Assembly: GCF_000027125.1 (NCBI RefSeq)
Contig: NC_017626.1
Source: Escherichia coli 042
GTDB taxonomy: Bacteria; Pseudomonadota; Gammaproteobacteria; Enterobacterales; Enterobacteriaceae
Strand: one strand, 5' to 3'
DNA: 64,000 bases
Of this stretch, positions 4,931 to 64,000 are shown one piece after another. The notes below the pieces were generated by a model. That model was not told the DNA's origin. It made no database searches and saw only the letters and a program-made list of their open reading frames with translations. Every line of letters begins with the position of its first letter. Position 1 is the stretch's first letter. Made by a program: the position numbers and the translations under genes.

Positions 4931-6133
4931 TTATTTAACAGACTCCTTAATTTTCTGGATATATGGGCTCAATTTAGCTTCCCATGAAAAATTCTCACCG
5001 ATAAACTTTTTCGCAACTAATGCTGTTTCGGTATATTTATCCAGATTTGTTATAAAATAATTTAATACACGTAAATATTCTTCTTTTGTATTGGCAACAT
5101 AAATCTCCTTACCCTCCTCTGCTCCCAAGCCTTCAAAGCCTACAGTAGAAGAGATACAAGGTAATCCCAACGCCATATATTCAAGTACCTTATTTTGGAT
5201 ACCTGCCCCTAATCTAATAGGACATACACCAATATGCCCATCAGCTGCTGCATAAGTTATGCTATCAACTTCACCTGTGACAACAACGCCAGGCTGGCTT
5301 TCTAACCAACTCTTATCTTTATCTGTAATACGTCCGATGACCTTAAATTCAAAATTACCATGCTTGTTAAGAAATGGTAAAACTTCCTTGGTGAACCATC
5401 TCACACCATCCATATTTTGCAAAGAATATAAATTACCTATAAATACAAGGGTTATCTTTTTATCTTTAGCTATTTTTCGTTCTGAAAAAGGTAAGCTAAC
5501 GGCATCAACACCATTTCCACAGACTAATACATTATTCGGACGGTCTGGATATAAATAATCGGAGTCAACCTGTGATACCAAAGTAGTCAAGCTGAACTTG
5601 TTATTTATAGTTCGCTCATATCGTTCGAGTCTTTTTTGTTCAAAAGAATATACAAATGTTTTTAAACTCAATAAAGATGCTTTTTCCTTTACTCGTTTAT
5701 AATTAAGTGAAATGGCATCGGTCATCTCTAAAAAATTTATATCTTTATTCTCTTTCACATAATCACCAACCCTTATCAAATGTGAAAGAGTTGCAGAATG
5801 TTCAGGTAATAACTGCTTAAGTTTATCTTCAAATTCTTTAGATTTATAATACCCAATCTGTAGGGGAGTATTTGAAAACAAAGAGAATATGACATTTAAA
5901 ATAGATTTTTTCTTTGAAAGATATACTCTGTGAACACTACTAAAAACTTCACGATCATATTCATAGTTGAGCTCTTCGCGTTTATCACACAGACTCAGCA
6001 ACGTAAGATCATAATGCTTAGACAGTTCTTTACAGATCTTATAGATACGTAATCGATCCCCACCAATGACAGGAAACGGGAACCGTGGAGTCAAAACTAA
6101 TATCTGTTTCTTATTTATATCAATATTACTCAT
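4931..6133 (-). CDS. glycosyltransferase, GT4 family (GT-B fold)
   Basis: 400 aa; C-terminal half has the GT4 pattern (GNG..., E-x7-E-like [10 protein letters not shown]); ATG start; located in the O-antigen cluster. Confidence 0.7.
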
Positions 6134-7130
6134 AAATCTTTCTCAATTCATTTTCAAATAAAATATGTTCATGCAGAGCTTTCCTTTCGACACTGGGTGA
6201 ATTATCTACCAAGTATGAATAGACTTCATAATACTCAGAATAGTAAGTATAAAAGAAAATATTCGAATCCTTTTGTTCGCGGAAAGCAGAGATCCGTGTG
6301 CATATAACATTTTTGCATGTGAGTTTTGCTTCAGCTAAAGTCCTTCCATACCCCTCGGCAAGCGAATGAGCCCAAACAATTTTAGAATTACAATATAGTT
6401 TGACGACTTCCTCTAAAGAAACAAAACCAATAATTTCAATTTCTTTATCTGTATCCCGCCCATCAATTAAGTCGTTAACCTTGCTAATACCATTCCCACA
6501 ACCTAATATTTTTAATGGTATTCTTTCTTCCCTTGGGATTGAAAAATAATAGTCCAGAGCTGTGCCTAGATCCTTATTATCCCCTAAACCTGAAACTAGA
6601 AGTAAATATCCAAGATCTTTTATTTCGGTAACATTAGCAATTTTCTCAAATGAGAAAAATGGATTTGGGAGCAGGATAGATTCTATACACTTAAATAGCG
6701 ATATTCTCTTAGATACTCGCTGAGTGCTTTGAGAAATAAATATTACTTTCTTTGCTAAAAAAGATGAAAAATAAATACAGACTTTCACATAAATGGCAGC
6801 AAGATTTCGTTTATTTTTCTTAAGACTAATGAAGTCATGAATTATAACAATTGCCTTACCTAATAACAAGTCAATGATGGAACTACTATTATAGGGATAT
6901 ATATTATACTTAGTTCTATAAAATATACCCATAATTGGTATTAAAAGCTGCTCTACTATTATAAAAAGAACATTCAGAAACCATGAAGGCAGCTTATGGA
7001 ATGCTTTTGGACATGCAACATAAATAACCTGAACATTATTGTCTCTTAACTTTTGCACAAGTTCAGAAGTATAGATCGGTATTCCTCTTTTCAAAATACC
7101 ATCAAAAAAATTATTTACAATTACTTTCAT
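6126..7130 (-). CDS. glycosyltransferase, GT4-like
   Basis: ORF-track frame 6126-7163 begins with TTG; the internal ATG at 7130 (MKVIVNNFF...) has an AAGAG Shine-Dalgarno ~8 nt upstream. C-terminal LAEGYGRTLAEA motif resembles GT4 enzymes. Confidence 0.6.
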   Translation of the reverse strand: MKVIVNNFFDGILKRGIPIYTSELVQKLRDNNVQVIYVACPKAFHKLPSWFLNVLFIIVEQLLIPIMGIFYRTKYNIYPYNSSSIIDLLLGKAIVIIHDFISLKKNKRNLAAIYVKVCIYFSSFLAKKVIFISQSTQRVSKRISLFKCIESILLPNPFFSFEKIANVTEIKDLGYLLLVSGLGDNKDLGTALDYYFSIPREERIPLKILGCGNGISKVNDLIDGRDTDKEIEIIGFVSLEEVVKLYCNSKIVWAHSLAEGYGRTLAEAKLTCKNVICTRISAFREQKDSNIFFYTYYSEYYEVYSYLVDNSPSVERKALHEHILFENELRKIYE

Positions 7131-7229
7131 GTTTGCTCTTAAGTTTATTTCAGATATTATCAATAGTATAAAAATAGTCAGGATTATTATTTCTTATTTT
7201 GAGAACGCATCATATAAACACAATCTTAC

Positions 7230-7268
7230 CACGCTACCGCCCCTGGCTTAACAGCTACCAGTGCACTA
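7230..7268 (-). promoter_or_regulatory. JUMPstart element with ops (GGCGGTAGCGTG), RfaH-dependent antitermination site in the O-antigen operon leader
   Basis: Minus-strand sequence TAGTGCACTGGTAGCTGTTAAGCCAGGGGCGGTAGCGTG matches the 39-bp JUMPstart consensus and ends with the ops element. Confidence 0.85.
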
Positions 7269-7523
7269 GCAAAATGCCAAAGATGTACCCCGCCCCGCTA
7301 GCTATCGCAAAGCTATCTTAAATTCAAACGCCAATTGTCTTACCAAATGCTGTCAGAAACAAGGATAAATCCAACAAAAAATAGATTAAACTTAGTAGGT
7401 TAACTCGTTGTTATTCTTTGTTTTAAAAAGAAAAACGACAGTAACATTCCTTTGTTTAAAGCATAGACGCCGGGATGTTAGCTGCCGCTATTTATCTAAA
7501 TTATTGTTACATTGGCTTGGGAT

Positions 7524-8417
7524 CTATTCCCCGAGCAACTTCTCAATGCTCTTACGGAACTTTGGCCCTTCCTTCAGGTTGCGCAGTCCATACTTCACAA
7601 ACGCCTGCATATAGCCCATTTTTTTACCGCAGTCGTAGCTGTCGCCGGTCATCAGCATGGCATCAACGGACTGTTTTTTCGCCAGTTCGGCAATAGCATC
7701 AGTCAGCTGAATACGCCCCCATGCACCAGGTTGCGTGCGTTCAAGTTCCGGCCAAATATCGGCAGAAAGCACATAGCGACCAACGGCCATGATGTCTGAG
7801 TCCAGCGTCTGCGGCTGATCCGGTTTTTCGATAAATTCGACGATGCGGCTGACTTTACCTTCACGATCCAGTGGTTCTTTGGTCTGAATGACGGAGTATT
7901 CAGAGAGGTCACCCGGCATACGTTTTGCCAGCACCTGGCTGCGGCCCGTTTCGTTGAAGCGCGCAATCATGGCAGCAAGGTTATAGCGTAGCGGATCGGC
8001 GCTGGCGTCATCGATAACAACGTCTGGCAGTACCACGACAAATGGGTTGTCACCAATGGCAGGTCGTGCACATAAAATGGAGTGGCCCAAACCTAAAGGT
8101 TCGCCCTGACGCACGTTCATAATGGTCACGCCCGGCGGACAGATGGACTGCACTTCCGCCAGTAGTTGACGCTTCACGCGCTGTTCAAGGAGAGATTCTA
8201 ATTCATAAGAGGTGTCGAAGTGGTTTTCGACCGCGTTCTTGGACGCGTGAGTTACCAGGAGGATTTCTTTGATCCCTGCAGCCACAATCTCGTCAACAAT
8301 GTACTGAATCATTGGCTTGTCGACGATCGGTAGCATCTCTTTGGGAATCGCCTTAGTGGCAGGCAACATATGCATCCCAAGACCCGCTACAGGAATAACT
8401 GCTTTTAAATTCGTCAT
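7524..8417 (-). CDS. galF: UTP-glucose-1-phosphate uridylyltransferase paralogue GalF
   Basis: Protein [30 protein letters not shown]... matches GalF as I recall it; start trimmed from the ORF-track MDEI extension to the ATG at 8417. Confidence 0.9.
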
Positions 8418-60667: not shown

Positions 60668-62029
60668 ATGTTTAAACCGGAACTCCTTTCCCCGGCGGGA
60701 ACGCTGAAAAATATGCGTTACGCTTTCGCTTATGGCGCAGATGCTGTTTATGCGGGCCAGCCGCGTTACTCCCTGCGTGTGCGCAACAACGAATTCAACC
60801 ACGAAAATCTTCAGCTCGGCATTAATGAAGCCCATGCGCTGGGGAAAAAGTTTTATGTCGTGGTCAACATTGCACCGCACAACGCCAAGCTGAAAACCTT
60901 TATCCGTGACCTGAAACCGGTGGTGGAAATGGGGCCGGATGCGCTGATTATGTCTGATCCAGGGCTGATTATGCTGGTGCGTGAGCACTTCCCTGAAATG
61001 CCGATCCACCTCTCGGTGCAGGCTAACGCCGTGAACTGGGCGACGGTGAAATTCTGGCAGCAAATGGGACTGACCCGCGTGATCCTCTCTCGCGAGCTGT
61101 CGCTGGAAGAGATTGAAGAGATTCGTAATCAGGTGCCGGATATGGAGATCGAGATCTTCGTTCACGGCGCGCTGTGCATGGCCTACTCCGGTCGCTGCCT
61201 GCTCTCTGGCTATATCAACAAGCGCGACCCGAACCAGGGCACCTGCACCAACGCCTGCCGCTGGGAGTACAACGTCCAGGAAGGGAAAGAAGATGACGTT
61301 GGCAACATCGTACACAAGTACGAGCCGATTCCGGTGCAAAATGTTGAGCCGACGCTGGGTATCGGCGCGCCAACCGACAAAGTGTTTATGATCGAAGAAG
61401 CCCAGCGTCCGGGCGAGTATATGACCGCGTTTGAAGATGAGCACGGCACTTACATCATGAACTCGAAAGATCTGCGCGCCATCGCCCATGTAGAACGCCT
61501 GACCAAAATGGGCGTGCATTCGCTGAAAATCGAAGGTCGTACCAAATCTTTCTACTATTGCGCACGCACCGCGCAGGTTTACCGTAAAGCTATCGATGAC
61601 GCCGCTGCGGGCAAACCGTTCGATACCAGCCTGCTGGAAACTCTGGAAGGTCTGGCGCATCGTGGCTATACCGAAGGTTTCCTGCGTCGTCATACTCACG
61701 ACGATTATCAGAACTACGAATACGGTTATTCAGTTTCTGACCGCCAGCAGTTTGTTGGTGAGTTTACCGGTGAGCGCAAGGGCGACCTCGCGGCGGTAGC
61801 GGTGAAAAATAAATTCTCCGTTGGCGACAGCCTTGAGCTGATGACGCCGCAAGGCAACATTAACTTTACCCTTGAGCACATGGAAAACGCCAAAGGCGAA
61901 GCAATGCCGGTCGCACCGGGCGATGGTTATACTGTGTGGATCCCGGTGCCGCAGGATCTTGAGCTAAATTACGCGCTGCTGATGCGTAATTTCTCCGGGG
62001 AAACCACGCGTAACCCCCACGGTAAGTGA
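60668..62029 (+). CDS. yegQ: U32-family peptidase-like protein YegQ
   Basis: Start trimmed to MFKPELLSPAGTLKNMRYAF (ATG at 60668), 453 aa. Confidence 0.88.
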   Translation: MFKPELLSPAGTLKNMRYAFAYGADAVYAGQPRYSLRVRNNEFNHENLQLGINEAHALGKKFYVVVNIAPHNAKLKTFIRDLKPVVEMGPDALIMSDPGLIMLVREHFPEMPIHLSVQANAVNWATVKFWQQMGLTRVILSRELSLEEIEEIRNQVPDMEIEIFVHGALCMAYSGRCLLSGYINKRDPNQGTCTNACRWEYNVQEGKEDDVGNIVHKYEPIPVQNVEPTLGIGAPTDKVFMIEEAQRPGEYMTAFEDEHGTYIMNSKDLRAIAHVERLTKMGVHSLKIEGRTKSFYYCARTAQVYRKAIDDAAAGKPFDTSLLETLEGLAHRGYTEGFLRRHTHDDYQNYEYGYSVSDRQQFVGEFTGERKGDLAAVAVKNKFSVGDSLELMTPQGNINFTLEHMENAKGEAMPVAPGDGYTVWIPVPQDLELNYALLMRNFSGETTRNPHGK

Positions 62030-62063
62030 TTAATTTCGATTATTTTTCCCGGATGGAAAATTC

Positions 62064-62079
62064 TTAGAAACCGATCACA
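62064..62079 (+). promoter_or_regulatory. candidate CRP site (class II position) in the cyaR promoter
   Basis: TTAGAaaccgaTCACA with a good right half-site, centred about 42 bp upstream of the CyaR 5' end; -10-like TATCAT at 62101-62106. Confidence 0.4.
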
Positions 62080-62113
62080 TACAGCTGCATTTATTAAGGT
62101 TATCATCCGTTTC

Positions 62114-62200
62114 GCTGAAAAACATAACCCATAAAATGCTAGCTGTACCAGGAACCACCTCCTTAGCCTGTGTAATCTCCCTTACACGGGCTTATTTTTT
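62114..62200 (+). ncRNA. cyaR: CyaR (RyeE) Hfq-dependent sRNA
   Basis: GCTGAAAAACATAACCCATAAAATGCTAGCTGTACCAGGAACCACCTCCTTAGCCTGTGTAATCTCCCTTACACGGGCTTATTTTTT matches the CyaR sequence as I recall it, including the intrinsic terminator. Confidence 0.85.
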
Positions 62201-62522
62201 ACGCATAAGCCCTATCCCTGATAACCGTCTTCCATTGACCACATCGATAGAATCTCCCTTCATAGCACGATGCCTTTCACACAACGGCATCGTGCTCGCC
62301 CAGGTTCCGGCTACGCACAGCCAGAACGCGCATGTTTGACGCTTACCAAAAAATGAACCTAAAGCATTGGAATATTTTTGACATCATTTTCTGATGGCGG
62401 CATAAAATAAAAATGCTGCTTTAGTTTCATCTATCTGTTTGTCATTATTACTCACATTCAATAATGGTGTTGAAGAACAACTATCAGAGATAAAAATGAA
62501 TGTGTACATCGTAGTCTTGAAT

Positions 62523-62846
62523 CTATTCTCGCTCTCCACATTTGAATGTCAGACGAGCGACGCCATGTAATCCTGCACCTTCTGTCTTCAGGTCAACTAT
62601 CTGCATTTTTTTGCCCTGAGTAACACAGAAATGAGCTGCATCATTTTTTACTATATTTTCTGCACCAGAAATTCTGCCCCTGGCTAAAGAAGCTTCGGCT
62701 TCGGTGTAGTATTGGTTATCGAGTTTACGCTGAATATTACTTTTATATGCAAGACCAAATTTACCGATACTTGTCTCATCATTATGTACAGCACACCCAG
62801 ACATAAGAAAAACACTAATTAATGATATAGCAGCTATCTTTTTCAT
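62523..62846 (-). CDS. yegR: lipoprotein YegR
   Basis: Start trimmed to MKKIAAISLISVFLMSGC (ATG at 62846); lipobox LMSGC. Confidence 0.8.
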   Translation of the reverse strand: MKKIAAISLISVFLMSGCAVHNDETSIGKFGLAYKSNIQRKLDNQYYTEAEASLARGRISGAENIVKNDAAHFCVTQGKKMQIVDLKTEGAGLHGVARLTFKCGERE

Positions 62847-63249
62847 CTCACCTTCCCCCATTAAATACCAACGACACGCTCTGGTGTTTAAATATAATAA
62901 TGGCATGATTATTATAATTGAATAGGATTATAATAAATGTTCTGTACAACATTTCCTACATAAGTAGGAATTACATACACGGATGCCTTCCGGGTAACCC
63001 CATGGGGGGGTTAATATATTTTTAATAGTATATTGAAGATGCCACTGTTTAGTTGAATATTAGGTATATGCTCTTTTTTGAAATTTATCGGTGGCTGCCG
63101 TTAACATTCACTGTCCCCATTGCAAGCTCCTGGTGGTAACCACTGAATCCTCTATACTTGAACTGACTTTTTATCCTCCGACTTTCATCCTGTTCTGACT
63201 CCACCTTTTCTTTTCTGCTCTACACTATCTACAGACCAATCATAAAGGC

Positions 63250-64000
63250 ACATACGATCATGGCAGAATTTCCCGCCAGCTTACTGATTCTTAATGGCAA
63301 AAGTACTGACAATCTACCCTTGCGCGAAGCAATTATGCTGTTGCGTGAGGAAGGAATGACGATCCATGTGCGGGTCACCTGGGAGAAAGGCGATGCCGCA
63401 CGATATGTAGAGGAGGCCCGGAAGTTGGGCGTCGCAACGGTGATTGCCGGTGGTGGCGATGGCACCATTAATGAAGTTTCTACGGCGTTGATTCAATGTG
63501 AGGGGGATGACATACCCGCGCTGGGAATTTTGCCATTAGGAACCGCCAATGATTTTGCCACCAGTGTAGGGATTCCTGAGGCACTGGATAAGGCGCTGAA
63601 ACTGGCAATTGCCGGTAACGCCATTGCGATAGATATGGCGCAGGTCAACAAACAAACCTGTTTTATTAATATGGCGACAGGCGGGTTTGGGACGCGTATT
63701 ACCACAGAAACGCCGGAAAAATTAAAAGCCGCGCTGGGTGGCGTCTCTTACATCATTCATGGCTTAATGCGCATGGACACTCTGCAACCGGACCGTTGTG
63801 AAATCCGCGGTGAAAACTTTCACTGGCAAGGTGACGCCCTGGTCATAGGTATTGGTAACGGGCGTCAGGCCGGTGGCGGTCAGCAATTGTGCCCGAACGC
63901 GTTAATTAACGATGGCCTGCTGCAACTGCGCATTTTTACCGGCGATGAAATTCTTCCAGCTCTCGTATCAACCTTAAAATCTGACGAAGATAACCCGAAT
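63250..64000 (+). CDS. yegS: lipid kinase YegS (diacylglycerol kinase catalytic domain), 3' end outside window
   Basis: [18 protein letters not shown]... with the GGDGT motif of DAGK_cat-family kinases; ORF is open to the window end. Confidence 0.85.

Follow-up and report, generated by a model that had tools for sequence, protein, structure and literature searches.

The window, by which we mean the whole stretch of 64,000 nucleotides that was analysed, carries the genes trhP, cyaR, yegR and yegS in this order. The upstream neighbour trhP (yegQ; 60668-62029, plus strand) is a listed open reading frame that was named from the annotation of the 99.9% identical LC-1302-2020. The small RNA gene cyaR (ryeE; 62112-62197, plus strand) was recognised with the Rfam model RF00112, which it matches over its full length (model positions 1-85 of 85) with a covariance score of 100.7 bits against a gathering threshold of 47; together with its intrinsic terminator, this match identifies the gene as CyaR/RyeE. 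The terminator (62165-62200, plus strand) emerged from a terminator scan and from folding as an 11-bp stem (62165-62192) with a 6-nt loop and a T-run that reaches 62200, and its fold has a free energy of −16.3 kcal/mol (z = −4.9). On the opposite strand, yegR (62523-62846, minus strand) encodes a small predicted lipoprotein of 107 aa (105 aa in K-12) that is annotated as 'protein YegR' in LC-1302-2020 and whose homologs carry PF27694. The downstream neighbour, the lipid kinase gene yegS (63261-64000, plus strand), was assigned from the annotation in related genomes and runs off the window. When the region 61900-63300 was compared with 5,425 E. coli records, an identity of at least 99% was found in only 2 of them (LC-1302-2020, 99.9%), most records being 95-98% identical. 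Judged from these identities, the window appears to represent an uncommon E. coli lineage at the cyaR locus.

The gap between cyaR and yegR (62198-62522) measures about 325 nt and contains no annotated gene. A tblastn search of 62101-63300 with the Ogr and Int proteins and the D C-terminus of phage P2 gave no significant match, the best having E = 0.1 over 11 residues, which bears out the statement in the preliminary description that no phage-derived genes separate cyaR from yegR. That description also placed a prophage remnant between the two genes in K-12, and rightly so: ogrK and a 'phage late control D' pseudogene (a truncated D) are found there. In K-12, cyaR ends in AATCTCCCTTACACGGGCTTATTTTTT and is followed by phage DNA of about 630 bp, then by a partial core of 18 nt (TACACGGGCTTATTTTTT), and lastly by host DNA of the type that begins at 62201 in the window, including the hairpin described below; the remnant is thus flanked by one full and one partial core. 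In the window, the junction of cyaR, core and flank is uninterrupted, and a remnant of the K-12 type (ogrK and D') is therefore absent. The window is the uninterrupted version of the K-12 locus. The spacing of cyaR and yegR in K-12 differs from that in the window and a P2-type core is present, both of which agree with the earlier suggestion of an unoccupied attachment site.

The P2 core in the cyaR terminator

The sequence AATCTCCCTTACACGGGCTTATTTTTT at 62174-62200 (plus strand) is identical in 27 of 27 positions to the attP core of phage P2 (AF063097, 24356-24382, annotated as 'attP' and 'Int attP core'). When the phage collection was searched at high sensitivity with 62160-62360 as the query, the identity to P2 was seen to continue up to 62203, 62174-62203 matching AF063097 24353-24382 in 30 of 30 positions, and this part of the P2 record carries the annotations attP, Int attP core and IHF site. 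In the cyaR gene, the core takes in the final two bases of the terminator's ascending arm and continues through the loop, the descending arm and the T-run. Further evidence came from E. coli genomes in which the locus is split. In these genomes the alignment to the window stops at 62200 and sets in again at 62174, as is characteristic of a duplicated core. The copy on the yegR side adjoins a P' arm of the P2 type together with int, C and cox, as read from the sequence of vB_EcoM-720R8, and cox, C and int are also annotated next to yegR in O157:H7 TR01 and in E700025. The prophages seen at cyaR have the same orientation, with ogr toward cyaR and int toward yegR. Based on these data, 62174-62200 is very probably an intact and unoccupied attB for P2 and its close relatives (Peduovirus), which lies inside the 3' end of cyaR.

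The preliminary description had suggested that an empty attachment site of the P2 family adjoins the sRNA gene, and had associated it with a hairpin downstream. The kind of site was named correctly, but the site lies inside cyaR and not beside it, and the core at 62174-62200 leaves the hairpin without a part in it. For annotation this means that the att core belongs on the cyaR terminator and not on the downstream hairpin.

Integration of P2 is carried out by its tyrosine integrase with the help of IHF, the strand exchange taking place between the attP core and its identical counterpart of 27 nt in the chromosome. At the cyaR locus, the core of the incoming phage would bring with it the loop, the descending arm and the U-tract of the terminator, so that CyaR would be rebuilt at the cyaR-side junction and should stay functional. 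It is the core copy contributed by the phage that would keep CyaR intact. The other junction would receive a core copy that is not preceded by the ascending arm, and the prophage would end up between cyaR and yegR with ogr by cyaR and int by yegR, which is the orientation described above. Judged from its attB, the strain is predicted to be proficient for integration of P2 at 62174-62200, and it should accordingly be open to lysogenisation by P2 at the preferred site of this phage.

Two further features in the vicinity of the core were observed. The descending arm of the terminator (GGGCTTAT) could also pair with ATAAGCCC at 62205-62212, just beyond the core, and this pairing, which spans 62188-62212, represents a possible alternative hairpin across the T-run that would be abolished by the insertion of a prophage. 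Moreover, the first 10 nt of the core recur as an exact direct repeat, AATCTCCCTT, at 62251-62260 (plus strand), just ahead of the downstream hairpin. This second copy is marginally unusual (P = 0.023, dinucleotide shuffle) and may be the scar of a hybrid att site or a product of chance.

To place the window among other strains, the state of the locus was determined in 5,426 complete E. coli genomes. The uninterrupted cyaR-core-flank junction was found in 4,206 of these (77.5%), and about 861 genomes have a locus that is split at the core, P2-like prophages being present at all 3 split loci that were inspected. The K-12-type junction, in which D' is followed by the partial core, accounts for 356 genomes (6.6%), mainly laboratory K-12 derivatives. 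The empty site is the majority or default allele in E. coli, and K-12 is the exception with its deletion remnant. This implies that the adjacency of cyaR and yegR is the default arrangement in E. coli and that ogrK and yegZ of K-12 reflect a derived state. An empty site looks the same in sequence whether the strain has been precisely cured or has never been lysogenised.

Some database records from this locus deserve a remark of their own. AY639599.1, named 'Phage TP', is a chromosomal remnant of the K-12 type that contains yegQ (as 'putative protease'), cyaR, ogr, D' and the start of yegR, and the record of vB_EcoM-720R8 extends into the host genes yegR, yegS and the gat repressor gene. The 9.7-kb contig JAIJJM010000051.1 comes from a bin labelled Collinsella sp., in which an E. 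coli-type cyaR with the exact core is followed by a P2 arm; it is almost certainly mis-binned Escherichia DNA.

The segment between the core and yegS

We scanned one genome per species for the 3' half of CyaR and compared the sequences that follow the core. In many Enterobacteriaceae, among them Enterobacter, Kosakonia, Klebsiella/Raoultella, Atlantibacter and Cedecea, cyaR is directly followed by the promoter of yegS and by yegS itself. The same direct arrangement was observed in the divergent 'E. coli' E69 and in Escherichia sp. E1V33, the yegS genes of which are 84-88% identical to that in the window, and in both of these genomes the BLAST alignments break at window position 62200, which is the last base of the core, and at 63168. 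The E. albertii sequence aligns up to 62208 and again from 63168 onward. In the complete E. coli collection we found no case of a direct cyaR-yegS junction. Since E69, E1V33 and the other genera are without the approximately 970 bp at 62201-63172 and no genome of the complete E. coli collection shows the direct junction, this segment appears to be specific to E. coli proper and to have been inserted exactly at the core.

Several features of the segment would fit a decayed integrant of the P2 type. At its far end, AATCCTCTATACTTGAACTGACTTTTT (63146-63172, plus strand) resembles a degenerate second core, here termed core', with 17 of 27 positions identical to the core (18 of 27 in K-12), which is the best match in 62201-63300. 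A match of 17/27 somewhere in the region was also obtained in 9.5% of the shuffled sequences (P = 0.095), and core' is therefore telling only by its position: it lies within 1 nt of the point where the homology to the yegR-less Escherichia genomes resumes. Variants of core' exist in other strains. At the near end, the flank at 62213-62247 (plus strand) resembles the P-arm integrase site of P2, and includes an exact 15-mer, CATTGACCACATCGA, at 62233-62247 that falls inside the annotated 'Int, P arm' site of the phage. None of 3000 dinucleotide shuffles reached the score of the alignment between this flank and the 100 nt to the right of the P2 core, whichever of three scoring schemes was used (P < 1/3000), and in other strains the alignment is longer (of the 27/32 type). 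The motif is located 33 nt from the core, as compared to 49 nt in P2, which places it 16 nt closer. The stretch at 63117-63140 (plus strand) is identical in 18 of 24 positions to P2 sequence left of the core, and its distance to core' is 5 nt, the corresponding distance in P2 being 6 nt; this similarity is suggestive only, P being 0.003, 0.07 or 0.0007 according to how the alignment was scored. Lastly, the segment has a GC content of 33-39%, as compared to 51-57% in the neighbouring genes.

We consider it probable that the roughly 970 bp from the cyaR core to yegS, with the P-arm-like motif, the hairpin, yegR and core', are a fossil, left by an earlier P2-like prophage that had inserted into the same core after E. 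coli split from the closest Escherichia. The proximal core would have been kept perfect as the terminator of cyaR, so that it could still serve as attB for later P2 phages, and the distal core would have decayed. yegR would then be either cargo of this prophage or a gene that settled late among prophage remains, like cdtABC in E. albertii. If this is true, selection on the terminator of an sRNA would preserve the target of a phage while prophages come and decay several times over, and it could be such a cycle that placed yegR, an orphan gene specific to E. coli, where it is. The structure around yegR is a minor addition to the present results, and the verdict on the empty attB is unaffected by it.

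An alternative, which we regard as possible but rather unlikely, is that 62201-63172 is a plain piece of ancestral chromosome, that its likeness to the P2 arm and to the core arose by chance, and that the yegR-less genomes originated by deletion. This would agree with the finding that no integrase gene, no other phage gene and no fragment of a phage protein was detected in the segment by tblastn with P2 Int, Ogr and the D C-terminus or by comparison of YegR with phages. Searches of the phage collection with 62160-62360 and 62900-63185 likewise returned only the core, apart from the records vB_EcoM-720R8 and 'Phage TP' that contain host DNA, and no arm was visible at the BLAST level. The frequency of core'-like matches in shuffled sequences, the weak similarity left of core' under one of the scoring schemes (P = 0.07) and the fact that the relatives of YegR are not associated with phages also fit an ancestral origin. 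However, E69, E1V33 and E. albertii, which represent three lineages independent of each other, are without the segment, as are many genera; the breaks fall on the final base of the core and on core', and deletions that arose independently with the same core-bounded ends would in turn mean that two core copies had recombined. Chance also has to contend with the exact P-arm 15-mer and its wider alignment in other strains, which exceeded all shuffles, and an ancestral chromosomal origin with the low GC content. The divergent Escherichia-like genome 'E. coli' SCPM-O-B-8794 (L034) was considered as a case in which a better-preserved arm is joined to the segment, but a later remnant whose deletion extends into the flank accounts for it equally well, and it was not used as evidence.

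The analyses of yegR itself suggest a wandering orphan gene. The protein encoded in the window gave only weak, sub-threshold matches to Pfam. A comparison with PHROGs and a tblastn search of phages returned one PHROG (phrog_21109) and two phage records, both of which include host flank, and phrog_21109 probably stems from prophage calls of this flank-including kind. Distant homologs of YegR were found in contexts that are unrelated to each other, one of them flanked by IS elements and none of them phage. Inactivation of yegR gave no phenotype (PMC3708739). A YegR homolog with 51% identity was seen in Enterobacter sp. BIDMC 29 (6001-6318 of its locus), among IS and transposase genes and near an omptin gene and an MFS transporter gene. 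FDAARGOS_1077 was examined as a candidate for a yegR-less E. coli and rejected, since most of yegR has been lost there through an internal deletion, with the flank, the hairpin and the sequence ahead of yegS still in place.

Between the hairpin and yegR, the window contains an AT-rich segment of 170 nt (62355-62524) that overlaps the last two codons of yegR and that, according to the alignment, K-12, EC2 and the majority of E. coli do not have. It moves the stop codon of yegR by two codons, which accounts for the lengths of 107 and 105 aa. We found it as a single copy in 947 of the 5,426 genomes, for example in ST131 and UTI89, with 92-93% identity to the window. Because it is single-copy, shows only 92-93% identity between its carriers and the window and is also begun in the divergent L034, the 170-nt segment is more likely to be ancestral and deleted in other lineages than to be a mobile insertion. 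A mobile element was rejected as an explanation, since the segment is single-copy, always occurs at this place and is without clear terminal repeats.

The hairpin downstream of the core

A search for repeats combined with folding revealed a hairpin at 62264-62296 that has a perfect stem of 11 bp, AGCACGATGCC/GGCATCGTGCT at 62264-62274 and 62286-62296, and a loop of 11 nt, with a T-run on neither strand. The preliminary description had reported a perfect stem of 9 bp at about 62267-62295. This stem is real, but its coordinates were one base off: it corresponds to the inner 9 bp, CACGATGCC/GGCATCGTG at 62266-62274 and 62286-62294, of the longer perfect stem. The hairpin has a folding energy of −21.3 kcal/mol (z = −5.9), and none of 200 shuffled sequences folded as well.

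The hairpin is located approximately 64 nt past the core and on the host side of every junction examined, both in lysogens and in K-12. It stays single-copy beside prophages, where it is at their int end, and beside the K-12 remnant, and its stem contains a mismatch in the host of one lysogen. No part of it has a counterpart in the attP of P2. These comparisons place the hairpin outside attB, in ordinary flank that is conserved across E. coli. Its position relative to the P-arm motif is that of the ogr terminator in P2, and if the segment is indeed the fossil of a P2-like prophage, the hairpin may be the leftover of a phage transcript terminator that followed the P arm.

It is also conceivable, though in our view unlikely, that the hairpin is an RNA element of the host and not a leftover of a phage, either as a stabiliser or non-canonical terminator at the 3' end of minus-strand yegR transcripts or as a barrier to read-through from cyaR. 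In accordance with such a role, the 11-bp stem is intact in five of the six E. coli versions examined while three positions of the loop vary, and in genomes without the 170-nt segment the hairpin lies about 70 nt downstream of the yegR stop codon. Against this, the stem is present but the U-tract of a Rho-independent terminator is missing on both strands, which is why the hairpin was not among the terminators that the scan picked up. In addition, the stem carries a mismatch in one strain, the excess of conservation is not significant with only about six sequences, and the inactivation of yegR was without a phenotype (PMC3708739). A role as a host RNA element would, moreover, fit a phage origin too. 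Finally, the original idea that the hairpin serves as the att core or is indispensable to the att site drew on its being a strong and statistically unusual inverted repeat near cyaR and on recombinase core sites often being inverted repeats, but it is extremely improbable, given that the annotated attP core of P2 matches 62174-62200, that P2 attP contains none of the hairpin, and that the hairpin remains single-copy on the host side, 64 nt off the core, in lysogens and K-12, with a mismatched stem in the host of one lysogen.

Comparison with known integration sites

Barreiro & Haggard-Ljungquist reportedly described locI, its 27-nt core and a K-12 remnant of 639 nt in 1992. In the genome paper of E. 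coli W, the RNA gene cyaR has been listed as a prophage insertion site that holds a full P2-type prophage in strain W, 'ogr-D'' in K-12 and a P2 remnant in B, and that is empty in Crooks (PMC3032704, Table 2). The integration site of P2 equivalent to that in E. coli C has been given as MG1655 position 2165238 (Nilsson et al., PMC3448106, Table 1), which is consistent with the end of cyaR. The empty P2 site at cyaR is thus already known, ordinary and documented. Compared with locI of E. coli C and with ogr-D' of K-12, the locus in the window has the same core, the same place (where cyaR ends, with yegQ/trhP on one side and yegR on the other) and the same prophage orientation. The essentials are alike, and the window differs in having the empty allele and the 170-nt segment that K-12 is without.

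Several other temperate phages are known to insert into small structured RNA genes at the 3' end, such as P2-like phages at rybB, Fels-2 and SopE-phi at ssrA, and 186 at a tRNA-Ile gene (PMC3032704, Table 2; PMC3448106). In these cases, the target overlaps the end of the gene and the duplicate carried by the phage restores the gene, and the core in cyaR is alike in this respect. Unlike the tRNA-like structures, however, the target in cyaR is the terminator of an Hfq-dependent sRNA. The overlap with cyaR is easily missed because the sites of P2-type integrases are described as mostly intergenic (PMC3448106).

The closest parallel to the history that we propose for the yegR segment was found in E. 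albertii NBRC 107761 (4964-8322 of its locus), where the cyaR core is followed by a short stub of a P2-type arm, by three open reading frames and then by yegS. The three frames, identified from their translations only, resemble cdtA, cdtB and cdtC (258, 269 and 181 aa). This locus shares with the window the same core and the same right boundary (63168), and its arrangement of an arm stub, cargo that does not look like phage, and yegS is the one proposed for the segment with yegR. The two differ in that the cargo of E. albertii is a toxin operon of about 3.3 kb as compared to a single small lipoprotein gene, and in that its arm stub is much better preserved. The E. albertii locus is in this sense a living case in which the prophage has gone and its cargo has been left behind, and this is the history that we propose for the segment with yegR.
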